Positions 402 through 52,899 of a stretch of DNA of 64,000 bases are shown piece by piece. The notes beneath the pieces are model-generated. The model made no database searches. It had not been told where the DNA came from and saw only the letters and a list, made by a program, of their open reading frames with translations. The stretch spans positions 70,060,001 to 70,124,000 of the forward strand of contig NC_043008.1 of assembly GCF_006345805.1 (NCBI RefSeq), in the 5' to 3' direction. Every line of letters starts with the position of its first letter. Positions within the stretch are counted from its first letter, which is position 1. Origin of the DNA: Octopus sinensis. Taxonomy: Eukaryota. Position numbers and translations under genes: made by a program.

Positions 402-448
402 CGTGGGACTGACCCAGTTTCGAGCTAGTTGGCTCTTCATCAGCCGCA
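402..448 (-). ncRNA. Type I hammerhead ribozyme motif, intact core
   Basis: Minus strand reads ugcgg CUGAUGA a gagc-caacua-gcuc GAA acug-ggu-cagu C ccacg. Core is canonical, stem II 4 bp, stem III 4 bp, triplet GUC, stem I 5 bp with one mismatch. Confidence 0.75.
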
Positions 449-809
449 CACACCTGCACAATGGAGTGAAAGCTAGGATCCGCTTCTGCCAGTGATATAT
501 TGTAAATAAAGTGACCATCATGTTAGATGACTATTTTACTATCAAGGCGTTGTTTTACAGCTGATGCCCTTTCTGTCATTAACATTTATTTGTTCTCTGA
601 GTTCTTTTATTTCACATGTCTTTGAAAGTGCAAAGTGAGTAAATGATTTGTTGACAGATGTTTTTTGGCTTTAAAGATGCATAAATGACATAGGGGCTGA
701 GATTTTCATGAATGGAATTTATGAAACCTTGATAGGTGTAATGCAGGAAGCTGTTGACCTTTGAATCGATTTACTACCAAATTATTTGTGTGTGGGTGTA
801 TGTGAATAC

Positions 810-810
<1 letters not shown>

Positions 811-842
<32 letters not shown>

Positions 843-980
843 TAGTTAAGGTCCACGTTTCCATGTTTGAATTGGCCAGGTACAATTTGTTGAGGCATGT
901 TTTCAACAGCTGGATGCCTTTCCTGTTATTAGCCTTCGCCTGTTTCCAAGTATGAAACATGTTTTCATAGAAGACTGGAA
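811..980 (-). mobile_element. SINE/RTE-tail family C remnant
   Basis: (CAT)n tail plus cagctggatgccttt, the reverse complement of the family motif aagggcatccagctg. Confidence 0.55.
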
Positions 981-1034
981 ATGATCAACAAACAAACAAA
1001 CACATGCAAGCACACACACACACACACACTCACA

Positions 1035-1100
<66 letters not shown>

Positions 1101-1454
1101 CATGAACAGCCTTTCTAGTGACGTGTTTTGAATTGTATTAGATCATGGTGAGTTCTAATTATATCATTACATTATCTGTTAGTCACTTTTATAACCATTA
1201 TCATTTTAGCATCTATTTTTCCATGCTTGGACAGTTTGGACAAAATTTGCTGAAGAAGATTTTCCGCAGTCAAATAACCTTACTGTCACCAGCTCTATTT
1301 GTTTCCAAATAAGGTCATATTTCCTCGGTACCAGTTATGTTTTCATAGAAGAGTGGCAACAAAGTACATTGCTGCTTACATGACAGTGACATTCATTTAC
1401 ATATATCACACAATGTCAAGACAGGGAGACATAATCCATCCCCTACACACACAT

Positions 1455-1503
<49 letters not shown>

Positions 1504-2010
1504 CATGCACACACACAGACACACTCACACACATATATCCATGTGTGTGTGTGTATGCGTGCAATGGTCTTTTTTAAGTTTCCAATGACCAAATCATCTC
1601 AACAAGGCTTTGGTTGACTTGAGTCTGTAGTAGTAAACTTGCCCAAGATACCACACAGAGGAATTGAACCTGAAACCATATAAGCAAACTTCTTAATTGC
1701 AAGCCATACCTATATGTAGATTACAACAGCGACAGTCGTTTCTATAATATTCAACAAAACTGAACCAAGACAAATAATTCATAACCAATAACATGGGTTA
1801 GCATAAATCAGGCAACATTCCCTATGCAACATTGGTTCTTTTTTATTTCTGATGTGCATATCTTCCATACTTACCAATTCTGCTCACTCGAGTATTTCAC
1901 TGCTGTCAGCCGTGTCTCACCAGGAGGTTTTCATAGCTGAGTACATATGTCTCATTATGGAGGCCTAGTGTTTCTTCGCTTAACTCCTGTACAATATCCA
2001 GGTTTTGATA

Positions 2011-2346
2011 CTCTTACTCTTTACTTGTTTCAGTCATTTGACTGTGGCCATGCTGGAGCACCACCTTTAGTTGAGCAAATCGACTCCAGGATTTATTCTT
2101 TGTAAGCCTAGTATTTATTCTATTGGTCTCTTTTACCAAACCGCTAAGTTAAGGCGACATAAACACACCAGCATCGGTTGCCAAGCGATGTTGGGGGGAC
2201 AAACACAGACACACAAACATACACACACACATACATACATATAGATATATATACATATATATGACAGGGTTCTTTCAGTTTCCATCTACCAAATCCACTC
2301 ACAAGGCTTTGGTCGGCCCGAGGCTATAGTAGAAGACACTTGCCCA
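2011..2346 (-). mobile_element. SINE family A, 5'-truncated
   Basis: Reverse complement of the body of the 43526 and 51775 copies, including the internal (CA/TA)n tract. Confidence 0.9.
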
Positions 2347-3089
2347 GGAGTAGATAGGATGATTATTCTGTAGATCTTGTGCTTGATACCTGTGGAAATA
2401 TTTCATTATAACCAATATGAATAAATTACCTTACTTTATATCATGGTGAATGTTACAAAATATATGAAGATAAAGCCTTAATATTTGCAGACAAATTATT
2501 TTGTAATTAAAGGCAAGATGCTTCAATAGGTATGGTATTGAACCAACAGTTTACTGGACATCTGTGACATAAGTTCAAATATGCATCTGGTAACTAACCT
2601 CTTTAGTGGGTTAGCCACTTTGTGTTTTATTTTCTGTTTCCTCTGTTCATGTAGTTGCCTGATATAGGTATCAGATCATCTGGCAATGTTAAAAGTGGCT
2701 GATCCACCTAGCTGCCAGATAATGGTACCATAAAAATATCAGAATGTTATCTGTTGTTTACTCACCTAGCTTAAAGATGTCTGAGATCATCAGACATAAA
2801 TTATAAATGCTTCTATTCATTCACCAATGTAGTTACATGTATTTGTTTTTATCATGCAGCCTTGCTACTGATATTGTTGTTGTTGCCAGCCCTGATTAGC
2901 AGACCTATGAGCAAAACCATTCCAACTTTGACCCTCCCATTTATTTTCAGACATCACATATTTAAAACTGTACTATCCAAATTATGTATTTCTAAAGATA
3001 GCTTGGTGAAGTTTGGGAGATTTGGTTGCATTTGCATTTGTAACAGGTTGAGTGTTCATGAAGGGTATACTTTGTTAGCTCTTATTACA

Positions 3090-4085
3090 TAAGTGGTGTG
3101 GCTACAATATCGAACTACCAAATGGCTACAGTATTGAACAACTAAATTCAGTGGCTACACTATTGAAAAATTAATATATCCACCCATAAAGGTGCCAGCG
3201 TGGCTGTGTTGTAAGAAGTTTGCTTCCCCACCACATGTTTCTGGGTTCTGTCCCACTGCATGGCACCTTGGGCAAGTGTCTTCTACTATGGCCTCAGGTG
3301 GACTAGAGCCTTATGAGTTGATTTGGTGGACGAAAACTAAAAAAGCCTCCGTATGTATGTATGTATGTATGTATGTATGTATGTATATATAATGTGTGTG
3401 TGTGTCTGTGTTTATCTCTCCCCCATCACCACTTGACAACCAGTGTTGGTATGTTTACATCCCTGTAACTTAACAGTTTGGCAAAAAAGACTGATAGAAT
3501 AAGTACCAGGCTTGAAAATATAAGTACTGGAGTTGATTCATGTGACTAAGAATTCAAAGCAGTACCCCAGAATGGCTGTAGTCTAATGACTGAAACAAGT
3601 AAAAGATAAGATACATTCAGAGGTTATAATGTTGAACTACACATTCAGTGGCTACATTATTGAAAAATTAATATATCCGCCCATTCATTCACTGGTTACA
3701 GTATTGAACAACAAGCCTATCCTCTCATACTTTCTGTAGCTATATTATTGAACTATCTACCCACCTACATTTTGAGTGGTTAAAATATTCAGTGGCTACA
3801 GTATTGAACAACTATATTCAGTGGATACGCTGTTGAACTACCAACCTATACATTTAGCAGCTACATTATTCAGCTATCAACCTACAACCTATCTACTCAT
3901 ACATTCAATGGCTACAGTAATGAACTACCAAGCTACCCATCCATAGACTGATTGGCTGCAATATTGAACTATCAGCCTCTCCACTCATACATTCAGTGGC
4001 TACAATACTGAATGACCAACCCGCTTATCATTAAATTTAGTAGCTATTGTGTTGAACTATCACATTCAGTGGCTACATTACTGAA
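3090..4085. repeat. Degenerate minisatellite (core cattcagtggctacagtattgaactac), interrupted by a SINE
   Basis: More than 15 diverged copies of the ~30-45 bp unit on both sides of the SINE at 3191-3612. Confidence 0.8.
3191..3612 (+). mobile_element. SINE family A, full length, diverged
   Basis: tRNA-like head (tggctgtgttgtaag...gggttctgtccc), gcaccttgggcaagtgtcttc body, internal microsatellite, tgactgaaacaagtaaaaga tail. Confidence 0.9.
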
Positions 4086-4159
4086 AAAGCTCCCATGAAA
4101 TCCTAGATGTTCTGTTAAAATTCATTCCTGCTGATGTCATCATCAACATCATCTTCATA

Positions 4160-4650
4160 ATCATCATCATTTTATGTCCGCTTTCCATGCTGGCATGGGT
4201 TGGACAATTTGACTGAAGACTGGTGAGCCAGAGTCTGCACCAGGCTCAATCTGATCTGGCAAAGTTTCTACAGCTGAATGCCCTTCCTAATGCCAACCAC
4301 TCCAAGAGTGTAGTGGGTGCTTTTACATGCCTCCGGCATGAGGGCCAGTCAGATGGTTCTGGCAACGACCACGCTTAAAAGGTGTTTTTACGTGCTACCT
4401 GCACAGGAGCCAGTCCAGTGGCTCTGGCAACGACCACGCTCAATGTTGTTTTTCATGTGCTGGTATAGTGATGCTGGTAATGATTACGCTCAAATGGTGC
4501 TTTTCACATGTCACTGGCACAGGAGCCAATCCGTGGCCCTGGCAACAATCACACTCAGATGTGCTTTAATGTTCCACTGGCATGAGTGCCAATCAGGCGG
4601 TATTATCATCGGCCACATCAGCGATTTTGATTTGTTTACACTTGCCTCAA
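4160..4650 (-). mobile_element. SINE/RTE-tail family C with internal ~60-70 bp tandem subrepeats
   Basis: (CAT)n tail, ccgctttccatgctggcatgggttggac, tgcccttcctaatgccaaccactcc, then repeated ggtgctttt..ctggcaacgaccacgct units. Confidence 0.8.
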
Positions 4651-4892
4651 TTTCATGTATTTATGAAGTAAACTTAAATTGATATTGTCCCCCAACCCCT
4701 TTTCATCACTTGTGCACCTCCAGATCATTTGTAAATGTTATCTCCAATAAGAGACTATCTTCCTATCCCATAGAAGATTTATCTATCATCTGCTTCATGA
4801 ATTCAAACAAAAAAAAAAAAGAAAAAAAACCAGAGCCAATCACTGCAGCTGTTACCTGAGAGTACTTTGATAATGTTCAAAAGAAACTTACT

Positions 4893-4917
4893 GAGCTGCT
4901 GCTGCTGCTATTATTAT

Positions 4918-4964
<47 letters not shown>

Positions 4965-5010
4965 TAGCTGCTGCTACTACTATTACTATCATCTCTAATA
5001 CTGCTACTGC
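4893..5010. repeat. Compound trinucleotide microsatellite (GCT)n(TAT)n(TAC)n
   Basis: Read directly from the sequence. Confidence 0.95.
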
Positions 5011-6012
5011 ATTTTGGGAGGAATCAGAGAAAGTGCCAAAATCAAACTTCACATCAAGATAGCAACAATAAAAGAAAAAAATCTTTAAAAAGGTGAAACA
5101 AAAACAAGGAAAGTACAAAAATACAAAATAGCAACACAAAAAGAAAAGAGAAGAAAAATGGGGAGATGTTTACACATCCTCTTATTATTATTAGTGAAAT
5201 AATTCTCTCTTGAGATGTAATGAATATTCAAAATGAAAGCTGTCGTGCAGAATTTCTCTATGCCTGAATCTCATTAACAAATAGCTGAGACTTTTACTTC
5301 TCCAATGGTCAGAACAAAAATAAAAATTAGAAAATAGAAAAAGAAGAAAAAAATGACAATGATACTAACAACCCTCTAGCTTCTGTTTGATTGATATCTG
5401 TTTAAAAATACAATAAAACAGAATAAAAATGAATGAGATAGAACTAAAATGGACAGAGGGGACAGTTTCAAGCAAAATTCCAGTTGCTGCATATTGTATG
5501 TAGTTAATATTCATGAACCAAGTATATAGTCTCTAACCCTTTGTTGAATTTGCTAATCTCCGAACCCTTCTTCCACTACTTCATCATGTTGTTATTTTCG
5601 TATTTCGTTTTTTTTTCTGTTTTTGTTTTTGTTTTTGTTTGTCTTGTTTATCCATATTCTTCACTGTAATCCGTAATCCGTATTGGCTGCAAATAAAATG
5701 AGCAGTATCTTATCAATCAAATAGTTTGACAACATGGTATTGTATTTAACACTAAATGACCATAGGAGATATATCAACTTACTGGAATATTGAGAATGGT
5801 TAGTGCAGTTGGAACGATGGACTAGACTGGACTGAACAAACATGGTAAAACTGAATGCAATTGAAAATACACCACACACAAAAAAGAATGCATGCACATA
5901 TACATACACAAACAAATTACATTACATGTATCTTTTCTGTGTGTATACTTATATACACACACACACATAACATAAATACACAACTAAACTTATATAAATA
6001 AATACATTTATG

Positions 6013-6043
<31 letters not shown>

Positions 6044-6195: not shown

Positions 6196-6227
<32 letters not shown>

Positions 6228-14192: not shown

Positions 14193-15589
14193 TAATAAGA
14201 TACATTTATACATATGTATATAAATATATATGTACATACATACATATGTACATACATATATGTATATATGTATACACACACACAAGAAACTAAAAAAAAA
14301 AAGAGATAAAATAAAGCAGAAACCATTGAGTAATTAAATACAATAATAATAAAATATTTGATGAGGTTAATAATGTGACTAATTATGCTTTGCGAGTGGA
14401 ATGAATATTCACCAAAGCTTTACTACAATGGACATAGCATGTGACTGTATGACAGGTTGCCATGTACAGTTATGTAAAATATCTTAAGAATGTTTCCTTG
14501 GAGTCAAGTTTGCAGAGATCCTCATATTTCTGCAGCTTCACCTTTTCCTTGATCTTATTTCGAATGAAATATGTGAAGTTTCAATTAAGTTTTAAAATAA
14601 CCAAGAATTTGAAGGGATTCAGGAAAATAACTTTTATTTTTAAACTGTTGTATGGAACTTAACAAAAGATTCTTCCATGAAATTGTTGTGGAAAATTTTA
14701 ATTAAATACAGCCTCTTTAAAATGGGATGTTTTGTATCATTGAAGCAAAGAGGCTAGTGAAAGGTGGAGTATTAGAAATAGTTAAACCATACTAATTCCT
14801 CCTCCTCTTTCTTCATTACTCATATGGCCTATTCAGCTATGTTTATTTAATTCATGTCCATTCACAACGCATGACAGTGTGGTTAAGAAAGGAAAGTTTC
14901 CTTCCACAACCACATGATTTTGGTTTCAATACCAGTGTGTCCATCTCAGTCAAGTGTCTTCTACGATAGCTCTGGACTGGTCAATGCTTTGTGGCTGAAT
15001 TTAATGGTTTATTGGGTCACCCTGTGTTTCTTGATCATAAGGCGTTTAAACCCCATAGACTGGCCTACCCCAGTATGATATTAACTGCTCTACATCTAAA
15101 AGTGTAATTCTCCTCCGGATTTATGTATTTCTACAAACGATCATATATATTTATATATATGTGTGTGCGTGAGTGTGTATGTATGTATTTCACAAAATAT
15201 TTATGATCACCAATATGCATTGCAAATTACGTTCATTCATGATCAGCACTTGTTCACTTTACTTACACTTCTCTTTGTTAATGTTCACGTAGTTCCTATT
15301 TTTTTTTATCCATGTTTATTTCCCATGTATTCCACAACAATTGTGTACAAAACTTCAAAAAGTATATTTCCTGATGTTCATTTCTTTATGTTAACTCAGG
15401 ATCACTTCTTTTGTTTACTTGTAGTCACTTCAGTTAACCTGAAGTGAATGAGTTAACATCATGCTCACTCAATTTGTGTTTGCTTCCTCTATATTCACTC
15501 ACTGTTTGTTTACTTATATAGTCATTTATATTTTACTTACATGTATTTGCATTCTTTAGTCCCAGGTTAGCTCTAACATTCCAGTTCTA

Positions 15590-15845
15590 TATATTTAAGA
15601 GATGAGGAATTATGTACATTATTTACATTTGACAGATATTTGTCCTCGTCTTTGTTGTTAACACGTTTCGGCTGATATACCCTCCAGCCTTCACAAGGTG
15701 TCTTGGGGAAATTTCGAATATGGGTTCTCATTCCTAAGGTATTTTTTGATGATATTATTATTATTATTATTATTATTATTAAGGTCCCTGCCTAGAATCG
15801 AACCCAGAATCTTGGGGTTAGTAGTCCACACTCTTAACCAATACA
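15590..15845 (-). mobile_element. tRNA-headed short element carrying a decayed hammerhead motif
   Basis: Minus strand: tggttaagagtgtggactactaaccccaagattctgGGTTCGATTCT (B box), then (AAT)n, then gacac cttgtga a ggctg-loop-cagcc gaaac gtgtt at 15660-15702. Confidence 0.6.
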
Positions 15846-22561: not shown

Positions 22562-22660
22562 TGTATATGTATGTATATATATATATATATGTATATGTAT
22601 GTAATATATATATATAATATGTATATTATGTATATATGTATATATATTATATATATATAT
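22250..22660. repeat. (TA)n/(TATG)n microsatellite block
   Basis: Read directly from the sequence. Confidence 0.95.
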
Positions 22661-22759
22661 AACGGGAAGCTTTATGAAAATAGACAAAAGACGAAGGCAG
22701 GTGGAAAACAAACAAACAATTGTATTAGTATGGCGCTCAGGAAATATAAATAAAACAAG

Positions 22760-22797
22760 TCTTTAACGTTTCGAGCCTACGCTCTTCAACAGAAAGA
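22760..22797 (-). ncRNA. Minimal type I hammerhead motif (A6U variant, loopless palindromic stem III)
   Basis: Minus strand reads ucuuu CUGUUGA a gagc-guag-gcuc GAAAC GUU aaaga. Stem I is 5 bp perfect and stem II is 4 bp perfect. Confidence 0.6.
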
Positions 22798-22958
22798 TAC
22801 ACAGAGAAAAAAAACACAGAAAGAAGGAGAGAAAAAAAATGCGTGCAGTAACTAACAAATCAACATGGCGATCTGATTTCGGCCATCAAACATGAGATGC
22901 GAGAGCGAAATTAGGGGAGATAATAGGGTTGAATGACCTATATATATGTATATGTATG

Positions 22959-23235: not shown

Positions 23236-23237
<2 letters not shown>

Positions 23238-23757
23238 CAATAATAATTCTCTAAATGAGATATAGACAGTGACTGCTCCATAATATATGGCGTCAGCCTA
23301 TCTGGTGACGTTGATGTTCGCCTGGGGCTAAATGCAACAGTGACATCCCCACCACCCTGTCCTGTCCCTAGCCATATTCAGTTGGCTAATGTCCCTTATA
23401 TTATGGAGCAGTCACTGTCTATATCTCATTTAGAGAATTATTATTGCTGTCGAACAGATTTTCGAAATCAGTAAATGTATTTACTTGAAAATCTTTATAT
23501 ATATCTTGCACGGTGAGTTGTTCGTCGAGAGGCGGTGCCTACCACACGTTGATAATAGGCAATACACCTTGAAACCTAGGTCCATGTGTGGCATCCGCTT
23601 CTTGGGGAATGATCTCCCTTTGCAAGATAGAGGACGCCGTGATGGCGTCGGCCTATCTGGTGACGTTGATGTTCGCCTGGGGCTAAATGCAACAGTGACA
23701 CCCCCACCACCTGCCCTGTCCCTAGTCATATTCAGTTGGCTAATGTCCCTTATATTA
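23236..23757 (+). mobile_element. Penelope-like terminal repeat structure (inverted plus direct repeats)
   Basis: Perfect 52 bp inverted repeat 23236-23287 / 23397-23448. ~115 bp direct repeat 23287-23403 / 23642-23757. A hammerhead lies between, and (TA)n flanks both sides. Confidence 0.75.
23542..23591 (+). ncRNA. Type I hammerhead motif with U3-A8 core covariation
   Basis: ccacacg UUGAUAA u agg-caauaca-ccu u GAA ACCUAGGU C caugugugg. Palindromic stem III, triplet GUC. Confidence 0.65.
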
Positions 23758-23780
23758 TATATATATATATATATATATAG

Positions 23781-28698: not shown

Positions 28699-28738
<40 letters not shown>

Positions 28739-28740
<2 letters not shown>

Positions 28741-30196
28741 AAGGCAGACAAATCAGAAGTCCCTTCAGGTAGATGGCCCTTCTCAATTTGAAGAAAAGGT
28801 GTACGTAGTAGCTCTGTAAGATGCACGTGGAGTAAGCTTTAGACACATAAAAGGTGTAGCAATACCAGAGGAAGGTTAACAAAGAAAATAGCTTTTGTGT
28901 GTGGTAGATGCTTAGGTACAATGAACACTGAAAATGTACAGAAAATAGACTCCATCAACTGCCATTGGGGTAAGCTAGAAGTAGTAGGTAGCTTCCATTA
29001 TCTAGGTGATCAAGTTAGTAGCAGAGATGGATGCTCCAAGAGCATAGCTGTCAGAATAAGATTAGGCTGGGCAAAGTTTAGAGAGCTCCTGCCTGTGCTG
29101 GCAACAAAGGGCCTCTCTCTCAGAGTGGAAGACAGATTGTATGATGCTTGTGTGCAAACAGCTATGCTACAAGGCAGTGAAACATGGGCTGTGATAACTA
29201 AGGATATGTGTAGGCTTGAAAGAAATGAAACCAGTATGCTTTGCTGGATGTGCAATGTCAGTGTGCATGTTTGACAAAGTGTAAGCATCTTGAAAGGCAT
29301 TGAGGTGTCAGATGTGGTGTGCAAGGGAGACGAATGTACTGGTATGGTCATGTGATGCATATGGATGAGGATAGCCGTGTAAAAGAATGTGCTGATCCCT
29401 AACTGTAGGGGGAAACTGTGGTAGAGGTAGTCCCAGGAAAACATGGGGTGAGGTGGTGAAGCATGATCTCCAAACTTTGGGCCTCACAGAGGTAATGACT
29501 AGTGACTGAAACCTTTGGCGATGTGCTGTGCTTGAGAGGACCTGTAAAGCCAAGTGAAATTGCAGTCATAGCTGATGCTGGTGTCATGTAACTGGCACCT
29601 GTGCAGGTGACATGTAAAAAGCACCTTTTGAGCATTGAGCTTCATGAAGGCAAAGTGGTTGAGTTCCTTTCAAATGTTGGACTTCACAGAGACGATGACT
29701 GAGACCTTTGGCGTTATGTTGTGCTTGTGAAGAAGACCCATCAAGCCAAGCAAAATTGCAGTCATGGCAGATACCATTGTCATGCAAATTGCTCCTGTGC
29801 TGGTGACAGACAAAAGCACCGTTTGAACATTGGGCCTCGTGGAGGCAAGGACTGAGACCATTTGGCATTATGCCAGGTTTCAAGTGTTGGGCCTCACTGA
29901 GACAATGACTGAGTCCATTTGTCACTATGCTGTGCTTGAGAAGAAGAGCCACCAAGCCAAGTAAAACCACAGTCATGGCAGATACTGGTGTCACACAAAT
30001 GGCACCCGTGCCAGTGGCACATAAAAGCACTCATTATACTCTCAGGGTAGTTGGTAATAGAAAGGGCATCCAGCTGTAGAAACCATGCCAAAACAAACTG
30101 GTATCTAGTGCAGCCTTCCATCTTTCCAGCTCTGGTCAAGCCATCCAACCCATGCCAACATGGACAACAGACGTTAAGTGGTGATGATGATGATGA
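28739..30196 (+). mobile_element. RTE-clade LINE 3' fragment with tandemly repeated 3' region (copy 1)
   Basis: ORF 28897-29274: LEVVGSFHYLGD...RIRLGWAKFRELLPVL...LYDACVQTAMLQGSETW, followed by RWYGHV-like and RGSPRKTW motifs. Ends in the family C tail and (GAT)n. Confidence 0.9.
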
Positions 30197-30826
30197 CACC
30201 AACTCTGCTATTACAGATTAAGAGATTTGGAACACTTTTCTCAAGTAGATGGCGATGTTTCATCCTAGTTTATATACATAAATACATATATGTTTACCTG
30301 ACAGAAAAAAAAATAAACATAATATAAAAATAAAACATACTGTTTTATTATAAGCAAAGATATAAATGACATGATTAATGGCTCAAACAATTCATTAATC
30401 ATTGGTAATAATCAGTCACCCTAAAATATTTAACTGATTAAAATATTGCGTTACCTTAATGAAGTATATAACTTGTACATTTGATATCAGTTCCAGCTTC
30501 AATATCGAATATTATTTCTAGGCTTGCTCTAATATAATTTCACAATTAGAATCTCTAGAGAATCCATACAAGTCCAATAACTGAGGATATATTCTAGATC
30601 AAGGCTAGAAATAATTTATTACAGAAAGTTAATTAATTAATTAATTAATATGATCGATGGTGTGTTACATAATTTTCCTCATACACTAATTGTCAAATAT
30701 ACATCACCAGATAAATTATTCTCATTATTCATAGTTTCCTTCTCTCTTTCTCCTCTCTTACTTTCTGCCCTTCACTCTCTCTTTCTTTTCCTATGCACAC
30801 ACACACACACATGCACATGCATTGCA

Positions 30827-30875
<49 letters not shown>

Positions 30876-32332
30876 GGAAGGCAGACAAATCAGAAGTCCT
30901 TCAGGTAGATGGCCCTTCTCAATTTGAAGAAAAGGTGTACGTAGTAGCTCTGTAAGATGCACGTGGAGTAAGCTTTAGACACATAAAAGGTGTAGCAATA
31001 CCAGAGGAAGGTTAACAAAGAAAATAGCTTTTGTGTGTGGTAGATGCTTAGGTACAATGAACACTGAAAATGTACAGAAAATAGACTCCATCAACTGCCA
31101 TTGGGGTAAGCTAGAAGTAGTAGGTAGCTTCCATTATCTAGGTGATCAAGTTAGTAGCAGAGATGGATGCTCCAAGAGCATAGCTGTCAGAATAAGATTA
31201 GGCTGGGCAAAGTTTAGAGAGCTCCTGCCTGTGCTGGCAACAAAGGGCCTCTCTCTCAGAGTGGAAGACAGATTGTATGATGCTTGTGTGCAAACAGCTA
31301 TGCTACAAGGCAGTGAAACATGGGCTGTGATAACTAAGGATATGTGTAGGCTTGAAAGAAATGAAACCAGTATGCTTTGCTGGATGTGCAATGTCAGTGT
31401 GCATGTTTGACAAAGTGTAAGCATCTTGAAAGGCATTGAGGTGTCAGATGTGGTGTGCAAGGGAGACGAATGTACTGGTATGGTCATGTGATGCATATGG
31501 ATGAGGATAGCCGTGTAAAAGAATGTGCTGATCCCTAACTGTAGGGGGAAACTGTGGTAGAGGTAGTCCCAGGAAAACATGGGGTGAGGTGGTGAAGCAT
31601 GATCTCCAAACTTTGGGCCTCACAGAGGTAATGACTAGTGACTGAAACCTTTGGCGATGTGCTGTGCTTGAGAGGACCTGTAAAGCCAAGTGAAATTGCA
31701 GTCATAGCTGATGCTGGTGTCATGTAACTGGCACCTGTGCAGGTGACATGTAAAAAGCACCTTTTGAGCATTGAGCTTCATGAAGGCAAAGTGGTTGAGT
31801 TCCTTTCAAATGTTGGACTTCACAGAGACGATGACTGAGACCTTTGGCGTTATGTTGTGCTTGTGAAGAAGACCCATCAAGCCAAGCAAAATTGCAGTCA
31901 TGGCAGATACCATTGTCATGCAAATTGCTCCTGTGCTGGTGACAGACAAAATCACCGTTTGAACATTGGGCCTCATGGAGGCAAGGACTGAGACCATTTG
32001 GCATTATGCCAGGTTTCAAGTGTTGGGCCTCACTGAGACAATGACTGAGTCCATTTGTCACTATGCTGTGCTTGAGAAGAAGAGCCACCAAGCCAAGTAA
32101 AACCACAGTTATGGCAGATACTGGTGTCACACAAATGGCACCCGTGCCAGTGGCACATAAAAGCACTCATTATACTCTCAGGGTGGTTGGTAATAGAAAG
32201 GGCATCCAGCTGTAGAATCCATGCCAAAACAAACTGGTATCTAGTGCAGCCTTCCATCTTTCCAGCTCTGGTCAAGCCATCCAACCCATGCCAACATGGA
32301 CAACAGACGTTAAGTGGTGATGATGATGATGA
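30876..32332 (+). mobile_element. RTE-clade LINE 3' fragment (copy 2)
   Basis: ORF 31033-31410 gives the same protein as copy 1. Confidence 0.9.
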
Positions 32333-38305: not shown

Positions 38306-39585
38306 CTGGGTCATCCTGTAAATAACAAACTTTTTTTATACGTCTTTTATTTTTCAAAATTCAGATAAACAAATTTCTTTTCTTAATCTAATATATTATC
38401 TCTTTTATTTTCTACAATGCTCTTCCATCTAACTGGTAGACTTGCAAGGCCCCTCTTCCAAAATTCACTTGTCCATACTGTTCACTTGTCCAATACTGTT
38501 CTGACCTCATCTACAGAATTCATTTTTACCCATCCAAATGATTTTGAAGACTGCGGAATAAATGATAATCAGATGGGGCAATGTCCGGTGAATATGGTGG
38601 GTGGGGCATCGTTTCCCATTCAAACTGCTCCAGCCTTTGGAATGTCATCCTCGCTCTTTGTGGCTGAGCATTATCATGATGGAAGAACACCTTTCATCTT
38701 GAAACCATAGATAGTCGTTTTACTTCTAGTGCTGACTTATGCCGCTCAAGCTGCTTGCAGTAGATCTCCTTTGTTATCATTAGGTTTGGGTTTAAAAGTT
38801 CAAAGTGGACTAAACCTTTCATATCCCACCAAGCAGGTAACAACACCTTACATGGGTGAAGAACTTCTTTATCCTGAGATGCCAGTGTTTCTCCTTTCCC
38901 TACCCACTGTCTCCAGTGCTTGACATTTTTAGAGAGAACCCATTTCTCATCACCAGTCACTATTTGGTTTGAAAAGGGCTCATTCATTCTATGCTGTCAC
39001 ATGAGATGTGACAGCATAGAAGAGTGCATATTCACTCTCTGCACGTGATTAGACTGGGAAAGTTTGTGAGGAACCAATTGATACAATTTGCAGACGACTT
39101 TTCTCATAACACATAGTTGTTGATGAATAGTTGAATGACCAAATCCAAGCTTCTCTGCTAGTTCCTCATCAGTTACAATGTGATTTTGTTCCATCAGGGT
39201 TTGCAGGACATCCTCGTTGAGCTCTACAGATCTTCCAGGACAAGGCATGTCTTTTAGACTAGTTTCTGACTTGGAATTTCTGGAACCACCATTGACACTG
39301 GCTTACGCTTATTTTCTGATCCCCATACACTGCATTAATATTCCTCGCACTTTCTGTTGCATTGTTGCCTTTATTGAACTCATAAAGCGAAATATGCCGA
39401 ATATGCTCCTTTGTCACTTCCATTATAGCTTTGAAAAAATAACTGTTAAAATTGAACTGCACTCTTCAAAACTCACACTAAGTACAAGGTAAAATTACTA
39501 CCTACTTTTATAGCAAGTTTATGCGGGCCCTCCAACTTTTAGTTCATCCAATTGAAAAACCCACATTATTTATGGAATGACTCAA
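38306..39585 (-). mobile_element. Full-length decayed mariner (DD34D) element, 1280 bp
   Basis: TA-flanked TIRs ctgggtcatcctgtaaataa / ttatttatggaatgactcaa. Transposase pieces MEVTKEHIRH..YEF, LVPHKL (WVPHEL), IVTGDEKWV, HHDNA, HPPYSPDIAPSDYHLF, broken by frameshifts. Confidence 0.95.
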
Positions 39586-42319: not shown

Positions 42320-43146
42320 ATCCTTAAATCCTTAAAAATGTTTTAGCCCGAAGGCCGCGGCCATGCTGGGGCACCACCGCTGAATGAGCTACACTAGTTT
42401 GTGAATCCACCTCTGATACGTGGCACTTGATCAACAAGGGAGTTCGATGCTGCTGCCCGCATCCGTGTCTCCTGTCGTGAGGTAGGTTCATCTGTGACTC
42501 CCAACAAGAAGAGATCCAGTTTAATTTTAAAGAAACCACATCCACACCATGTAAGTCTCTCAGGCATTTAGGGAGGATGTTAAAGAGCTGTGGTCCTCTG
42601 AAACCCAAGCTGTTGCAGTATCTGGACCTGTATTTTGATGGTGATGTTGGAATCCTTGGCACCACGCAGCGGCGCCCCGTTCTGCGGTTGGAGTAACTTT
42701 GAATGCCAAAGTTTGGGACAAGACCCTCCAGGATTTTCCAGATGTATATCACTGCATATCTCTCCCGCCTCCGCTCCAGGGAGAAGAGGTTTAATACCTT
42801 CAGTCTTTCCCAGTAGCTGACATTTTGCATTGAGACGATTTTCTTTGTGTAGCTTCTCTGAGTTGCTTCGAGTTCTGCTGTTTGTTTTATATTGTGTGGT
42901 GACCAAAGTTGGGAGCAGTAGTCCAAGCGGCTGAGGACAAATGTTTTCCATAGGACCATCAGTGTCTCCTTCTCTCTTGTTCTGAAAGTTTGGAGAATCC
43001 ATCCAGCTAACCGTCTGCATTTTATCACCAGATTAGCAATATGCATTTGGAAAGATGCATCATTGCTCATGTCAATGCCCAGGTCACGCACTGATTTTGA
43101 CTCAGGGATTGCAATTCTTCCTGGGCCAGTGTATCCAGTCTTCACG

Positions 43147-43147
<1 letters not shown>
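42320..43147 (-). mobile_element. CR1-group LINE, 5'-truncated 3' fragment, relatively young
   Basis: VRDLGIDMSNDASFQMHI..WKTFVLSRLDYCSQLWSPH..LEATQRSYTKKI..SYWERLKVLNLFSLERRRER, open for more than 200 codons, flanked by (TA)n. Confidence 0.92.
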
Positions 43148-43177
<30 letters not shown>

Positions 43178-43178
<1 letters not shown>

Positions 43179-43510
43179 TGCCAGTGACGTTAAAAGCACC
43201 ATTTGAGCATTGGGCCTCATGGTGGCAGTGACAGGTAACCAAGACCCTTGGTGATATACAGTGCTTGTGTTGTCCTGTAAAACCAAATGAGACCATACTC
43301 ATGACCGATGTGGGTGTCAGGTCAATAGCTCCCATGCCAGCGGTACGTAAAATGTACCCACTACACTCTCAGAGCGGATGGCATTAGGAAGGGCATCCAG
43401 CTGTAGAAACCTTGGCAAATCAGATTGGAACCTGGTGCAGCCCAGTGGCTCACCAGTTTTCGGTCAAACTCATGCTGGCATGGAAAGCAGACATTAAATG
43501 ATGATGATGA
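43178..43510 (+). mobile_element. SINE/RTE-tail family C
   Basis: gagcattgggcctcatgg..ttaggaagggcatccagctgtagaaacc..catgctggcatggaaagcagacattaaatgatgatga. Confidence 0.85.
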
Positions 43511-44065: not shown

Positions 44066-44145
44066 TACATGCACGTATATTTGTATATATATATGTGTAT
44101 GTATATATAATCAAATTAAAATAAGCAACAGGATAACAAGAGGTG

Positions 44146-44233
44146 ATGCAGTACGACTGTTTCAAGTGGCTCCATTTAATTGAACAATGCAATCATTACA
44201 TCAGTTTAAATGCAGGGCTATCCTCAGCTGCAT
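44146..44233 (-). ncRNA. Type I hammerhead motif with long stem II, intact core
   Basis: augcag CUGAGGA uag...cauuuaa...uuaaaug...cuu GAAAC-aguc-GUA cugcau. Stem I is 6 bp perfect. Confidence 0.65.
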
Positions 44234-45201
44234 AGATAAATAAATAGAATTTTTATTTTCAGTTGCAGGCATTAATATAATTTTACTCAAATTCTCTAAT
44301 AGAGTAAGAAGGAGAAAGTCCATGTTGCTACTAATGTGACTCAGAACATGCTACACTTCTAAGAACTGTATGAAGTTTGTTAGGGTCATAGCTTGTAAAT
44401 GATTGTGGGTCACTTTTAATTTATTAATCTTTTTTTTTTATCAACTACCAAATCTAAGACTAGAGGACAGTGTATGGATAGAGTTGACAGTTTGTAGCTG
44501 GGTATGGTCATAGATATTGTCAGGATTTAGAAACTGTATAAGTAAATGTCTATAAAGGAGGCTGGGGAGAAGACCCTAAATCAAGGTGTTAATTACCAGT
44601 TAAAGGAGCAAGACGCTGATAAAACTTATGATAATACAGAGGAAATTATCATGAGGTACAATGGATGATTATATATAAACAATATTGTTATGTTGTATGA
44701 AGATAAAATATAAGATTACTAAAAATATTATAACCAGGGTAGATAACTGTGTATGTATACAAATTTTCAACATTAGAAAGGGAAGATTACATAGAATTAG
44801 ATTAATCTTCATACCTGTACTTAATCATTTACTTATAAGGTGGTTTCTATAAAGCTTGCTTTACATTTATACATTTACTTATACATTTTCTAAATCCTGA
44901 TAATATTCACAATCATACCCAGCTATAAACTGTCAACTCACTCTGCCTATCTTCTCTAAACAGACACTGTCCTCTAGTCTTAGATTTGGTAGTTGATAAA
45001 AAAAGACTAATAGATTAAAAGTGAACCACAATCATTTACAAGCTATGACCTAACAAACTTCATACAGTTCTTAGAGGTGTAGCATGTTCTGAGTCACATT
45101 AGTAGCAACTTGGACTTTCCCCCTCTTCTTGCTCTATTAGAAAATTTGAGTAAAATCATAGTAATGTGTGCAACTGATTAAAATATTCTATTTATTTATT
45201 T

Positions 45202-45289
45202 ATGCAGCTGAGGATAGACCTGCATTTAAACTGATGTAATGATTGCATTGTTCAATTAAATGGAGCCACTTGAAACAGTCATACTGCAT
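45202..45289 (+). ncRNA. Second copy of the long-stem-II hammerhead (GUA changed to AUA)
   Basis: atgcag ctgagga ... gaaacagtcata ctgcat. The G16.2-to-A change breaks the C15.2-G16.2 pair. Confidence 0.55.
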
Positions 45290-45416
45290 CACCTCTTGAT
45301 ACCCTGTTGCTTATTTTAATTTGATTTTATTCACCTTACTTTGAGTTGTACAGATAATACCACACTAACTTGGTGCTTCAACTTAAGTACCTAACTCAAT
45401 TGAATCGCAATTATTT

Positions 45417-45458
<42 letters not shown>

Positions 45459-45587: not shown

Positions 45588-45632
<45 letters not shown>

Positions 45633-45651
45633 ATAAATATATATATATATC

Positions 45652-45732: not shown

Positions 45733-45739
45733 AGTATAA

Positions 45740-46250
45740 TGTTTGTTGACACCACACCTAAGAACGAATTAAGTAAGGCATTTAAGAAAATCCTGCGCAC
45801 AGCTGGCCTTAAAATCTAAGTTGTAGAAAAGACTGGTAGGACTATCAAATCTGTTTTATGTAGATCATATCCATTTGATGGAATCACGTGCCAAAATAAT
45901 TGTGCAGTATGTTCTACAAACCCACATGTGAACTGCAAAACCAAGAGCACTGTATACCAAATTAAGTGCCAAGAAGGAGCTTGCATGACTAACCCAGAGT
46001 CATACATAGGTGAGACTTCTAGGAGTATCAATGATAGGTTCAAAGAACACCTGGACAACTACATTGAAAAGAAAGCAAACCCCATCTTCTATCAGCATGC
46101 TGTAGACTGCCACAAGGGCTCCTTAGGGAGACTTAAGTTAAACATCCTATCCACACATCCCACTGATGCAATGCTGAGACAAGTCACTGAAACTGTCTGT
46201 ATACAAGACTACAATCCCACTCACAACCATAAATCCGAATGGGGTAACAT
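45740..46250 (+). pseudogene. Penelope-like element C-terminal GIY-YIG endonuclease fragment
   Basis: C..NCAVC..NCKTKSTVYQIKC...SYIGETSRSINDRFKEH...H...H...RQVTETVCIQDYNPTHNHKSEWG, with an upstream in-frame stop. Confidence 0.9.
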
Positions 46251-46584
46251 CCAGATTTCACTTGGGAGTACCATTCTAAAGCCACCCCTTTCTCTCGTTT
46301 ACATGTGGTAATCTATACATACATGTTGAAATGCATGATACTAAAATACATATATGCAGTTATATATAACCATATGAGCGTACATAGTTTGGTACATATG
46401 TACGTATGTGTAGAAGTATATGTGTGTGTATGTGTTGTGTGTTGTGTATAAGTATGTACATGCATGCACATATGAGTATGTGTAGATATATGTATGTATT
46501 GTATATGTATGCATGTAAAAAAAGAATAAATAGAATAAAATAAAGCAAATTTGAATTTTAACTATTGTCCTTGAAAAGACTGTC

Positions 46585-46617
<33 letters not shown>

Positions 46618-47366
46618 TGGATATGTGTATATGTGTGTATACTTTAAGATTATATGTATATTTGTGAGTGTGTGTAAGTGTCTATATGAATGTGTGTACA
46701 TGTATATATGTATAAGGTTATATGTGCATATATGTATCTAAGACGTATCCATTCACCGTTAGACGGTGGTGAGAGGGACAAACGCACACACACACACATA
46801 TATATATGTGTGTGTGTCTATATACATGTATATGTGTGTGTATACAATCTTCAACAAAGTAACAGTCATATATGCAACTTGAACTGACGCATATCAGTAC
46901 ATAAACATACGTTCACATGTACATACACACAGACACATCTACACACTCCTAAATACTCACATACATACGTAAGTACATACTTACATACATACATACGTAT
47001 TGGCATGCACACATGCATTCGCACGTACATGTACACACATACATGCATATGCACATATATACATACATACATGCATGCATACATACATGCATACATGCAT
47101 ACATGCATACATGCATACATACATACATACATACATACATACATACATACACACATACATACGTACATATATATCATGAACTAACTGTTACTTTCTCAGA
47201 TGCAGCACGGAATTTTGTCAGTGAACAGGTTGTGGTCTCAAAGAGATGAAAATATTTTGACAAATTAAATTTAAATGTTGAAGTGAATCTAATGGTTTTT
47301 GTATGTTTCTTAAATGGCTTATAAACACCTTCCACGCTGCAATTGTTTATATATATATATATACAA

Positions 47367-47523: not shown

Positions 47524-47669
47524 CAATTTTTATAAATTTAATTAGAGGATGTGTAAACCTTGTTAAGGGATGGTTTCAGCCAAGGAAATACTGGTTCAAT
47601 ACCTAGTATTTTAGGGCAATGAATTTCCTTAAAATGATAGGTATATCGAAAAACATATAGTTTATATTC

Positions 47670-48012
47670 ATTTAAAAGAAGAAAAGTAAATGGAGATTAG
47701 GAAGTTAATAATTGTTTATTAGTAACAGCAAACTGGTCATCTTCTGTTACAGCCGTTTCAGTTAATGCTCAATAAACATTATGTCTGCTTATGAATTCAT
47801 TTTAGTCTGCTAAAATTAAATCATAAACACACATATAACATCCAAATGTACATTTCTTTTTCTCTGATGGTGTTGTGCACATGTTACATAAATGTAAATT
47901 TAATGTTTATTGAGTATTAATTGAAACGGCTGTAAGTGAAGATGGCTAATTTCCCGTTAATAATAAACAATTATTAACTTTCTGATCTCCACTTTCTTTC
48001 CTTCTTTTAAAT
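47670..48012. repeat. ~110 bp inverted repeat with a decayed hammerhead-like motif
   Basis: 47670-47781 versus 47901-48012. Plus strand has ctgatgg (47864) ... gaaacggctgta (47923). Confidence 0.8.
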
Positions 48013-48029
48013 ATACATAATTGGCATGT

Positions 48030-48194
48030 AAAACCATGCCGGTGACACGTAAAAAGCATCCACTACACTCACGGAGTGGTTGGCATTAGGAAGGGCATCC
48101 AGCTGTAGAAACACTGCCAGATCAGACTGAACCGTCCAACCCATGCTAGCATGGAAAGCGGACGCTAAACGATGATGATGATGACATATATATA

Positions 48195-48229
<35 letters not shown>

Positions 48230-48835
48230 TTGTGGTACAGTCAGGTGATGCATATGAATGAGGACAGCTGTGTAAGGAAGTACCAATTTCTAACTGTGGA
48301 GGGGGCAGATCCAGGAAGACATGGGACAAGTTGGTGAAGTATAATCTCTGAATGTTGGGCCTCATGGAGGCAGTGACCAATGACCTTGGCTGTATGCTGT
48401 GCTTGAGAAGACCTGTCAAGCCAAGTGAAATCATTGTTGTGGCTAATGCTAGTGTCACAGAATTGGTACTCATGTTGGTGGCATTTAAAAAGTGCCTTTC
48501 AGGTGTTGGGTGTTGTGGAGGTAATGTGGCCTGTGACAGTGTCACATAATTAGCACCTGTTCCCAAGGCCTGTAAAAAGCACCTATTGAGTGTTGGGCCT
48601 CATGGGGGCAATGACAAATGACTGAGACCTTTGGCAATATGTTGTGCTTGAGTAGATCTAGCAAGTCAAGGGAAATTATAGTCATGGCAGGTACTGATAT
48701 CACGCAGCTGGCACCCATGCTGGGACCATGTAGAAGTACTCACTTATACTTTCGGAGTGGGTGGCATTAGGAAGGGTATCTAGCCATAGAAACCATGCTG
48801 AATCAGTCTGGAGCCTGCAGCAGTCCCTCAGTTTA

Positions 48836-48838
<3 letters not shown>
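48030..48838 (+). mobile_element. Family C SINE followed by an RTE 3' remnant with tandem units
   Basis: Homologous to the 29340-30190 region (WYSQV..GRSRKTW, repeated tgggcctcatgg..gacctttggc..tgtgcttgag). Confidence 0.8.
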
Positions 48839-48880
<42 letters not shown>

Positions 48881-49492
48881 TATATGCATATATTTTTGTA
48901 TGTATGTATATATATATATGTGTGTGTGTGTATACATATATATGAATATAGGTGTATATATGCACACCTACACACATACCTACTTCCTCAACTACTAACG
49001 ATAAGAATAATAACAACAATACTGACAATAATAAATTTAATTTTGATATTTCTGTCCAAATTTCCAATAAGAGTAGTTTCTGGATGCAGTTCAGTTGATT
49101 TAAGATTCATTATTGTAATATATCAATTTCATAAAATTCCTGGTAAATTCCAAATTCTTGCAAATATATTGTGAATTCTAACTTATTATTTATGTCAGCT
49201 GTAGTTTGAGATTCGATGTTGAAATTTGGAATTGCAGAAACACAGTCTTTCCATATCATTCTTCAAGTTGACACTTCCACTATTCATTTTCACTTGTTTC
49301 TTTTCCTTTTCTTTCTGTGGTTTGTTTCTTTTTCTTCTTTGTTTATATTTGTCAAAGAGAATCGAAACTGACAAGAGTAACTAAAAGAGTCTTCTGAAAT
49401 TAAAGTGCAATAAATAAATGTCTATGTGAGTGTGTATGTATGTATGTATGTGTGTGTGTGTTTTGTGTGTTGTGAGTATGTATACATATGTG

Positions 49493-49862
49493 TGTGTTTC
49501 CTAACCACATGGTTTTGCGTTCAGTCTCACTGCATGGCGCCTTGGGCAAGTGTTTTCTACTACAGCCTTGGGCTGACAGAACCCTTGAGAAATGGAAACT
49601 GAAAGAAGCTTGTTGCATATATATATATATGTGTGTGTGTGTATGTCTTTGTGTCTGTGTTTGTCCTCAACTACTGTTTGACAATTGGTGTTGGTGTGTT
49701 GATGTCCTCATAACTTGGCAGGTTGGCAAAAGATACTGATGGAATAAATACCAAGCTTAAAAGATAAAATGAGAAGTACTGCGGTTGATTCATTTGACTA
49801 AAAATTCATCAAGGTGGCTCTCCAGCATGGCCACAGTCAAACGACTGAAACAAATGAAAGAT
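49493..49862 (+). mobile_element. SINE family A, diverged
   Basis: aaccacatggttttgcgttcagtc..cttgggcaagtg..ccagcatggccacagtcaaacgactgaaacaa. Confidence 0.85.
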
Positions 49863-50175
49863 AAATGAAGGCATGAAGATGTGTATTGAAGTATCCTGAT
49901 CATCATCATTTTATGTTTACTTTTGGTGCAGGTATGTGTTGGGCGTGTCACCACAGTTAGAGCTAGCACATTCAGAGCTACTTCTCATCTAAGCATGTGT
50001 CACTTTTGGGTTGGTTTCTATGACAGGATGCCCTTCTGAACATCAACCACTTTACTAAGTGTATTGGGAGCAAGTTTTCATGGTATTACAAAGAACTGTT
50101 GACTGAAGAGAATTCTTTACTTTACATCTTCACATTCACAAGAGGCATGAAAAACATGATAGAGGGATATGTGCA

Positions 50176-50208
<33 letters not shown>

Positions 50209-51774
50209 AAGCAGGCATAAGTCTATTTTAGAATTCCAATTCAAACCATGTGGTTTTAGGTTAAGCTTCACTCCATGCTATGTTTGACAAGTGTTTCCTA
50301 CTATTCCTCTTGGCTGACATATGCCTAGTAAGTGAAACTGGTTGGTTTTCATAAATAAATCCTGCTTAACCATTGACTTACTTTTGGAACTCCTTGTAGA
50401 ATCCAAGAATGAAAACTGTTTAAAATTAGTCCTAAAGTGTGAATTGGTTGTGTCCTGAGCAAAATTATGTCAATGGAAACCTTAAAGTTATGTACGTGTA
50501 AATAGTTGGTATGCATGTTCTGTTTACTGTATAGTTTCTGTAAGTAATAGTAACAACTGCCAACTGAACAAGCATAGTTAGCAGTTTAAAAAAAATAAAA
50601 ACTCTAGTGGGTTACATTGAATGTGTGTTTTAATGTTAGATTTGAATATGCCTTTCATTTTGATCATGATTTTACTCAGCTATTACTCTGAGTTTTGTCA
50701 CCACATTTAGCTGCTGTGATAAATGCGAATCAAACAAAATGAAGTCAACATAGTAATATAATACAAAATAACACTAAACTAGAATATATATATATTTCAT
50801 AGATGGATTGTCTTTCAGTTACAACCAAACAAAAGTTCTACCATTTCCTGGTCTTCAGGTACTGGATTAATATATCAAAGACACATATTCATGCTAAATG
50901 CTAAAATCAAAAGAAAAAGACTGAAAAAGAAAAAAAGCTCACAATTATCAGTTTGAGCATATAAAATTATATTGGTATTTTTCTTTTCCTGCAGGCATAT
51001 ATTGCTTACTATCTCTCAATATTTGAATTTTCTCATTTTCCATTTACATTGTAAAATATGTATATGATGGCGTCAATGCCTAGCCATTTTTATTTCACCA
51101 GTTTGATGCAACTATCATTGTATCTTTTACTTATTTATTTATTTATTTATGTATTTATTTATTTATTCTTTATCAAGTTTACCTGGACAACAAAAAATTC
51201 CATTGAAAAATGTTTGCAAGTGAAGGGATGCCTCTCTAACACAGCTATCTTTTGATGCTGTATGAATTCTATGGTTGTGTGGTTATATACAAAGATATTC
51301 AATTTTAGTATGGGCACTATGTGTGACACTAAATATATAAATACACCATGGCAATTACTATATTGTCAATGTCATTATACCTTTAACTACATTTATTTGA
51401 ATAATCCGAGGCAACACCCAATGATACCAATCTTCCTTTTGGGTACCAATTTTCTGTTTGCAATGACGTTTAACAAATCAAAAGTATTTTCACTTTATTT
51501 TATAATAATTTTCAATCCATTTAATTATAATAAATATATCTAATGCCATTATTAATACACTAATTAAAAGCATGTTCCACAGTACAAATAAATACTTGAA
51601 AATTAAAATTTAGAGAAAATGATATATAAAAAATCATCCTAATATAATTTTCCATATAGCAGCTGATAATTGTGAAGTCTGATAGTCAATTCAAAGAGTG
51701 TGTTCATCACTGAATAGACCAATTATTAGATTAAAGCGCTGTTTGAATGAGCCATGTGTTCTTTTGATTCACAT

Positions 51775-51948
51775 AGGCGTAGGAGTGGTTGTGTGGTAAG
51801 TAGCTTGCTTACCGACTACATGGTTCTGCGTTCAGTCCCACTGCGTGGCACCTTGAGCAAGTTTCTTCTATTATAATCTTGGGCCGACCAAAGCCTTGTG
51901 AGTGGATTTGGTAGATGGAAACTGAAAGAAGCCCGTCATATATGTATG

Positions 51949-51985
<37 letters not shown>

Positions 51986-52180
51986 CTGTGTTTGTCCCCC
52001 TAACATCACTTGACAACTGATGTTGGTGTGTTAATGTCCCTGTAACTTAGCAGTTCGGCAAAAGAGACTGATAGAATAATTACTAGGTCTACAAAGTATA
52101 AGTCCTGGGGTCAATTTGCTTGACTAAAGGCAGTGCTCCAGCATGGCCACAGTCAAATGACTGAAACAAGTAAAAGAGTA
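51775..52180 (+). mobile_element. SINE family A, full length
   Basis: Colinear with 43526-43938. Confidence 0.93.
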
Positions 52181-52306
52181 AGTCTCTTTGAGATGTTTTT
52201 CTGTGACAAAATATTACAGATAGTGCCATTCCATGTTTGTATATACATTATGAATGTTATACATACCTGTATTTTAATCTGATGTTGTTTCATATGCATA
52301 CATCAA

Positions 52307-52526
52307 CCCTTTAGCATTTAAACCAGCCACATCTGGCTCAAATATTCTACCTGTTTATGACCAAACTGGTGAGATCTGGACTCTCATACCCACCCTAAAA
52401 TGCCATTCTAAAACATAGACAATCACATCATTGAAATCTCAAAGCTAAGAGATGATGCATGATTAATTCAAAACAATGTAGATAAATAATCTCTATATTT
52501 GACAGAGTAATCTGAATATTAAAAGG
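52307..52526. mobile_element. piggyBac-type MITE, second family
   Basis: tcaa-ccctttagcattta ... tgaatattaaaagg-ttag (decayed TTAA and TIRs). Confidence 0.6.
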
Positions 52527-52899
52527 TTAGTATTACAGCTGGTGCTGTTCTACATTATATTATATACATTAGATATATCAGTATTTTAATCTAATGCTGT
52601 TTCAAGTGTGCATATTAAAGAAAATGGATTTATCTTCATTTTGAATTCAGCACTTATCATGGAAAGTTAGTTTTGATTCATTACCTATAAATCTAGAAAT
52701 GGTGAAACTTTTAGCTGTAATGCATCTGAAGGACAATCAAGCTATTGAAATTATGTATTATGCTCTGTATCATTGTATAGAGTTTGTGAGGATTCATTTA
52801 TTTTTATCATTTTGAAGCTCCTCTTTGAATTGAACTCTCTTTGTATTTTAAGCATAGCTACTGATTGAGAATAACTATGCAGTAGATTTTACCATCAAA

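Follow-up and report, generated by a model that had tools for sequence, protein, structure and literature searches.

A stretch of 64,000 nucleotides of the Octopus sinensis genome (RefSeq assembly GCF_006345805.1, contig NC_043008.1, positions 70,060,001 to 70,124,000), hereafter the window, raises the question of whether the hammerhead ribozyme-shaped motifs in several of its repeats are real, and how the repeats that carry them spread. The window is 35% GC and holds many (TA)n tracts, and the genome has a size of 2.72-Gb. The style of the repeats, and a protein named from Octopus vulgaris with 54% identity, are in keeping with an octopus. An earlier note made from the letters alone had proposed five well-formed and three decayed type I motifs in unrelated repeat families, and had linked them to Penelope-like elements (PLEs) and retrozymes. 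Type I hammerhead-shaped motifs are indeed real in the window and belong to multi-copy repeat families, and self-cutting is predicted from their sequences. With good confidence, we propose that type I folds stand at the 3' ends of seven families, two of which (B and H) are the ends of PLEs, whereas the other five are non-coding and likely PLE-copied, and that they are predicted to cut mostly as dimers. Each family is thus likely either the 3' end of a PLE or a non-coding passenger that uses one, which supports the link drawn earlier. Direct observation covers the motifs and their families, the coding frames that lie upstream in B and H, and the way in which the copies are inserted.

A type I descriptor matched the window twice (23549+ and 44227-), compared with 0.17±0.38 matches in 200 block dinucleotide shuffles of the window, and three times when U was allowed at position 6 (0.20±0.46 in the shuffles); in either case, the real count was equalled by one of the 200 shuffles. 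Genome searches, in which the best 40 candidates were scored per query, gave totals that are first-look candidates and not copy numbers: 212 for family A (query at 402), 1581 for B (22760), 1242 for C (23542), 2204 for D (45202), 3572 for E (15660), and 1245 for F (47864). The core boxes (positions 3-9, GAAA, and UH) surround three helices, with stem I open, in families A, C, D, E, and F, and also in H with a G3-C8 pair. The Watson-Crick pair between positions 3 and 8 is C-G in A, B, D, E, and F, U-A in C, and G-C in H. Core-box counts are given for each family below, and overlapping loci make some copies count more than once in them. The model named in the earlier note, Rfam Hammerhead_1 (RF00163), did not recover these motifs: there were no matches at the gathering score (34 bits) in eight family loci, and no hammerhead was present among the best 150 of 357 matches in an Rfam scan of the window. 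Seven Hammerhead_1 matches were found among 74 genome candidates scored, none of them from these families. Five of these seven loci (L212-L218) belong to one family, and two of the five lie 431 bp apart on one strand.

All five sequences described as well formed are in place. The motif at 44146 is well formed, and that at 23542 has the U3-A8 core, the U10.1-U11.1 apposition, and the palindromic helix III, although one pair of its stem I is lost to a change at 23584 that is private to the window copy. At 402, the core is intact, but stem I is decayed in the window copy while being paired in other family copies. The stems at 22760 are fine, but the motif cannot be called canonical because its core, CUGUUGA, has U at position 6 in 33 of the 34 family copies. 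The motif at 45202 is present with a broken closing pair in helix III, and it is not separate from 44146, as the two are halves of one head-to-head insertion. As for the three decayed motifs, those at 15660 and 47864 have family members with intact cores, whereas the one at ~52725 was rejected because it has only four genome matches and its relatives lack the core, both relatives that span the site reading ACAGAAGGA in its place. One motif had been overlooked, at 47214-47264 (+), with its core at 47221; it belongs to family H. The earlier observation is partly confirmed, with type I hammerhead-shaped motifs in seven multi-copy families.

One copy of family H carries an open frame of 1042 residues with a reverse transcriptase (RT; DKG and YxDD motifs) and, at its C-terminus, a GIY-YIG endonuclease (EN); the whole protein gave no Pfam match and no match to a solved structure. 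The 3' end of the element lies ~1.1 kb behind the frame, with the motif just before that end, and two kinds of 3' end plus inverted copies provide the insertion signature of EN+ PLEs. The motif consists of a 7-bp stem I, the core GUGAACA, an extra G, a 5-bp stem II opening with G-C, and GAAA. Loop II varies among subfamilies and stem II is kept, and the minimum-energy fold of a young motif forms stems I and II (z -3.4). A genome search for H scored 150 matches of 6125 candidates. G3-C8 is present in 68 of 71 copies examined, and we regard it as fixed, since a change at positions 3 and 8 together is seen in just 16 copies across the genome. These 16 are in mixed states, including five with A-U (a double transition); no C3-G8 subfamily of H was found among them, the single C-G copy not being a homologue. 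A loose G3-C8 pattern is dominated by noise (47,903 matches vs 29,468 in the control); the G3-C8 motif itself has nine occurrences in the first 6.4 Mb listed, or roughly a few thousand copies if that part is typical. The earlier note had suspected Penelope relics in the window, and the GIY-YIG relic at 45739-47363 is one, but it is not the parent of the family at 44146/45202 (family D): D-like motifs near H copies lie past the H 3' end.

Relatives of H were sought in metagenomes, giving 26 loci, 12 of which have a frame end; the 3' ends compared are those of relatives other than the closest (P0002-P0014). Eight of the 12 have the same layout behind the frame, and four of the 12 have no such motif layout. 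All eight motifs carry the extra G, but their stems and palindromes differ from those of H. Four have C3-G8 by the descriptor, two have U3-A8 by eye (one with C at position 9), and the remaining two, nearly identical loci, combine C3-G8 with a GAAA that is damaged. In a quick protein tree with an uncertain root, C3-G8 relatives fall on both sides of H, and therefore G3-C8 would most simply be a derived double change. At locus L257 (2490-2537), a hammerhead-like motif with U3-A8 and C at position 9 stands behind an H-related frame.

The RT and EN pieces of family B were identified by direct reading, with Pfam scores below the cut-off. Its copies share a fixed 3' end within (TA)n and vary in their 5' extent. 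The core boxes are intact in 32 of 34 copies if any base is accepted at position 6, and B is the only family that departs from adenine at this position; one related copy likewise has U6. Cleavage in family B is probably weak or absent.

For the non-coding families, the evidence lies in how they are inserted, and it is clearest in family C, a young family (97-99% identity among the top matches) with core boxes intact in 59 of 62 copies and a predicted cut after 23582 in the window. In 25 of 30 loci, five overlapping ones having been dropped, 35 of 46 segments stop exactly +177 or +221 from the predicted cut, i.e., at two fixed 3' ends 44 nt apart, whereas the 5' ends scatter. Head-to-head arrangements occur in 16 of the 25 loci, 15 of which pair one long with one short end, and a (TA)n flank is present at 24 of the 25. 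This tail matches the two RT start sites traced in the Poseidon PLE of Anolis (PMC11167929). The insertion-site evidence for PLE-dependent passengers is, in this respect, unusually clear. One stem I pair is C-G in 23 loci, U-G in two, and U-A in five. Family C has the non-coding 170-400 bp tandem units with a type I motif that are expected of non-LTR (long terminal repeat) retrozymes; family A agrees in its period. The window copy of A has a predicted cut after 407 and a helix III that could form a hairpin; core boxes are intact in seven of 32 copies, and direct offsets of 356-370 and an inverted upstream piece are seen in 12 of 30 loci. Two further observations concern family C. At one locus (L025, G000:C14:56146807-56150068), the whole inverted insertion is duplicated in tandem ~930 bp apart. 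In contigs of run X6 on window positions 23541-23675, A>G accounts for eight of the 11 listed differences, two of them within GAAA, as sense-strand adenosine-to-inosine editing would give; this run is only guessed to be RNA, comes with the label of a different organism, and lacks matched DNA.

Family E also shows a PLE-type double 3' end, with two fixed ends ~30 nt apart, and an inverted piece upstream in 17 of 25 loci. It has no LINE (long interspersed element)-type tail and no A-rich tail; target-site duplications were not searched systematically. A- and B-box-like sequences and an anticodon arm are visible in 22 extracted heads, for which ARAGORN gave weak support (none of 25 loci by default, and one of 22 heads, as tRNA-Ser, when relaxed), and there was no Rfam tRNA match. 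The hammerhead core of E, at 15697, is decayed in the window copy, and its boxes are intact in 17 of 40 copies. In family F, the inverted piece occurs in 16 of 25 loci, and the family motif has C3-G8, U-U, and a long helix II, with core boxes intact in 14 of 36 copies. Family D has boxes intact in 25 of 37 copies, and its motif at 44146-44233 (-) combines C3-G8, U-U, a long helix II, and a wobble palindrome in helix III. Its copies share 1.1-1.2 kb of upstream non-coding DNA, in which no frame was found. The features of the seven families in the window are collected in Table 1.

Table 1. Hammerhead-bearing repeat families in the window (positions of the window; strand relative to the forward strand).
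Feature	Position	Strand	Description
Family A repeat	201..519	-	Partial copy of an old, retrozyme-like non-coding repeat with a tandem period of ~360 bp
Family A hammerhead	402..448	-	Type I, C3-G8; A9 followed by an extra A or U, loop II of 6 nt
Family E element	15582..15844	-	~260-nt element with tRNA-like head (15776-15844), (AAT)n, minimal hammerhead
Family B element	22650..22940	-	5'-truncated 3' end, inserted in (TA)n, of young PLE bearing RT + C-terminal GIY-YIG
Family B hammerhead	22760..22797	-	Minimal, U6, extra A, palindromic minimal helix III
Family C inverted piece	23237..23290	-	5'-truncated, 44-nt tail
Family C repeat	23287..23758	+	1.3 units of 354-355-bp tandem non-coding repeat (non-LTR retrozyme), (TA)n tracts both sides
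Family C hammerhead	23542..23591	+	U3-A8 and U10.1-U11.1; stem I extended and containing an internal loop; helix III a palindrome
Family D, first half	44094..44860	-	Head-to-head insertion; hammerhead 44146-44233
Family D, second half	44872..45390	+	Head-to-head insertion; hammerhead 45202-45289, helix III closing pair broken
Family H element	45739..47363	+	5'-truncated PLE relic, microsatellite-rich 3' untranslated region, ends in (TA)n; GIY-YIG match
Family H frame	45820-46311	+	GIY-YIG, Pfam GIY-YIG E 3.2e-5
Family H hammerhead	47214..47264	+	G3-C8 and an extra G; helix III palindromic, stem II of this copy decayed
Family F element	47656..48010	+	Inverted piece 47656-47781 + direct copy 47817-48010; decayed hammerhead, core at 47864

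Taken together, these features suggest a possible route of spread. Tandem or read-through transcripts would bring two motifs together via the self-complementary helix III, and slow cleavage may then trim the RNA. The PLE protein would nick AT-rich DNA and begin reverse transcription from two internal positions that lie 3' of the motif. Since inserted copies continue across the cut site, the template would often be RNA that is uncut, multimeric, or circular. The fold was likely maintained by selection acting on the source copies even as the 3-8 pair switched (C-G, U-A, G-C), and the dispersed copies would decay neutrally.

It is worth asking whether the motifs could be chance look-alikes in AT-rich repeats. 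This is true of the ~52725 site, where it stands as the explanation, and several of the copies in the window have folds that are no better than those of shuffled sequences; for the seven families it is refuted by the enrichment over shuffles, by a palindrome that the searches did not ask for, and by the same position behind related frames, and as a general account it is extremely improbable. When a descriptor requiring nothing at positions 3, 8, or helix III was run across families on DNA fetched from the genome, it gave 42 clusters, and helix III was self-complementary in 15 of the 26 with a Watson-Crick 3-8 pair vs none of the 16 without (Fisher p 1.3e-4), five shuffles yielding 0-1 clusters of that kind; this across-family signal is strong, but the DNA scanned was enriched by targeted searches and the clusters are not independent, which is one of several points that weigh against the interpretation we favour. 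Another is conservation within families, which the earlier note had expected to be higher in cores than in the rest of the repeat: compared with other non-CpG columns, cores are modestly more conserved in A (0.97 vs 0.88) and F (0.95 vs 0.91), but barely so in D (0.976 vs 0.954) and E (0.955 vs 0.952), as expected of neutral decay after insertion. In addition, young family B has spread with a fixed U6 and no canonical core, family H has, besides G3-C8, a cut triplet of UUU and a helix III duplex of only -0.2 kcal/mol, and searches that used two PLE proteins as queries gave no partner frame in register for A, C, D, E, or F. Published tests point the same way, as minimal PLE motifs cut poorly (PMC4209133) and only one of nine predicted Xenopus retrozyme dimers was cleaved in vitro. 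Conceivably, the folds serve as signals for protein binding or folding, or are carried along as passengers, with cleavage dispensable in most families. The fixation of U6 in family B and the span of inserted copies across the cut site would agree with this, as would the in vitro behaviour of the lizard (Anolis) PLE, in which core mutants had no effect on insertion and none of the reads stopped at the cut site (PMC11167929), and the success of Naiad PLEs that have no canonical motifs (PMC8557442). However, within one PLE lineage both partners of the 3-8 tertiary pair change together, and unrelated families have the catalytic boxes and the palindromic helix III in common. Selection for an active core predicts both of these observations; we consider dispensable cleavage unlikely.

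Alternatively, C and A may replicate via 355-360-nt circular RNAs, rolling-circle reverse transcription, and more-than-unit insertions. Measured from a fixed 3' end, family C insertions are as long as 1006 bp, or almost three units, and one locus (L017) has three motifs spaced 354-355 bp. Divergence is 1.1% (71/6552) between tandem units and 0.8% (62/7434) between inverted units of an insertion, vs 2.4% between insertions, and this closeness fits a circle or a uniform tandem source. The 354-nt monomer folded as a circle reaches -118 kcal/mol, compared with -90±5 for base shuffles, and circles have been demonstrated in the literature for coral, mussel, and axolotl retrozymes. On the other hand, a homogeneous tandem source read as linear RNA would yield the same pattern, and tandem units have only four of 53 locus-private variants in common. 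Family C is covered by contigs from four sequencing runs whose RNA origin is a guess. Two of these contigs bridge the head-to-tail joint, but they count neither way because that joint is also present in genomic DNA. The balance is close, and we place circular replication just short of an even prospect. A bolder combined reading, in which H is a recently active and abundant PLE with a working natural G3-C8 core and the insertion sites prove that PLEs move a circular-RNA retrozyme (C) and a tRNA-headed SINE (short interspersed element; E), is more doubtful, and we put it forward only tentatively. If true, family E would represent a SINE class with a Penelope partner in place of a LINE.

The diversity of hammerhead families is larger than the earlier note had stated, as 12 further clusters of motifs with palindromic helix III are present in the same genome. 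These were seen in the flanks of loci L001-L248, several with helix II inserts of 40-75 nt, and none of the eight clusters tested has a copy in the window. The window also contains a near-identical 2136-bp tandem duplication with a LINE-like fragment (28714-32327), either real or an assembly repeat, a Mariner-type transposase fragment (38694-39302; Pfam Transposase_1), the end of a LINE-like frame without a Pfam match (42324-43298), and a piggyBac-like transposase fragment (56451-56969; DDE_Tnp_1_7). Three octopus families of tRNA-derived retroposons were reportedly described by Ohshima & Okada in 1994. Our literature search found neither an octopus hammerhead survey nor a PLE-moved tRNA SINE.

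The genome supplies a natural test set of young families for the role of hammerheads in PLE mobilisation: in C the motif is canonical-like, in H a core swap is compensated, and in B a core change is not. The natural G3-C8 core of H is probably new to the literature and would broaden search patterns, as searches for CUGANGA/UUGANAA miss such motifs. Small PLE hammerhead variants are said to be the subject of Lünse et al. 2017. In the published sources consulted, G3-C8 was found only as an engineered variant (PMC3884650, PMC8495972, PMC11167929); Lünse et al. 2017 may list such cores.

Compared with known systems, our families share many features with PLE minimal hammerheads, of which an extra base between positions 9 and 10.1 is a hallmark (Cervera & de la Pena 2014, PMC4209133): the type I fold, the extra base, the palindromic helix III, the place behind an RT-EN frame, opposite-strand pairs, many families per genome, and the U3-A8 variant. 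By contrast, neither G3-C8 nor U6 is present among the 56 representatives in Fig. S3 of that paper, which lists no cephalopod, and the helix II of D and F is far longer and starts with U-U. The natural variants U10.1-U11.1, U3-A8, and A6C (kobs <0.1 per min) are described by Perreault et al. (2011, PMC3088659), whose section on core variants does not name G3-C8 or A6U. The two non-canonical stem II junctions pointed out in the earlier note are present, but both are already published (PMC4209133, PMC3088659). In the giant squid genome, 235 Hammerhead_1 matches are reported (PMC6962438).

Family E resembles the Schistosoma SINE-like elements with a polymerase III promoter (PMC6765202) in joining a tRNA-like head to a hammerhead, but it is dispersed rather than tandem and has a minimal PLE-type motif, a PLE tail, and inversions. 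The tail-and-inversion pattern has been described for PLEs by Craig et al. (PMC8557442), and Frangieh et al. (2024, PMC11167929) attributed the tail in the Poseidon PLE of Anolis to a pair of internal RT starts. Our families share with Poseidon the tail pattern and the AT-rich targets. An engineered C3G/G8C change partly rescues cleavage in Poseidon, whereas family H has G3-C8 naturally. The linker CX2-5CxxC of H and B is of the Neptune/Nematis type and not of the Poseidon type (PMC8557442), as judged by the linker motif. Families C and A are similar to non-LTR retrozymes in their non-coding tandem units of ~355-360 bp with one type I motif each (PMC7229834). Retrozymes have been proposed to derive from PLEs (PMC7229834; Li, Clavereau & Pollet 2026, bioRxiv 10.64898/2026.07.22.740005), in the latter work from co-occurrence and pseudo-LTR (pLTR) similarity in vertebrates. 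Family C differs in displaying the PLE insertion signature itself, namely two fixed 3' ends, an inverted truncated copy, and (TA)n, and its two fixed 3' ends would mark the exact RT start sites that a PLE origin of retrozymes predicts.

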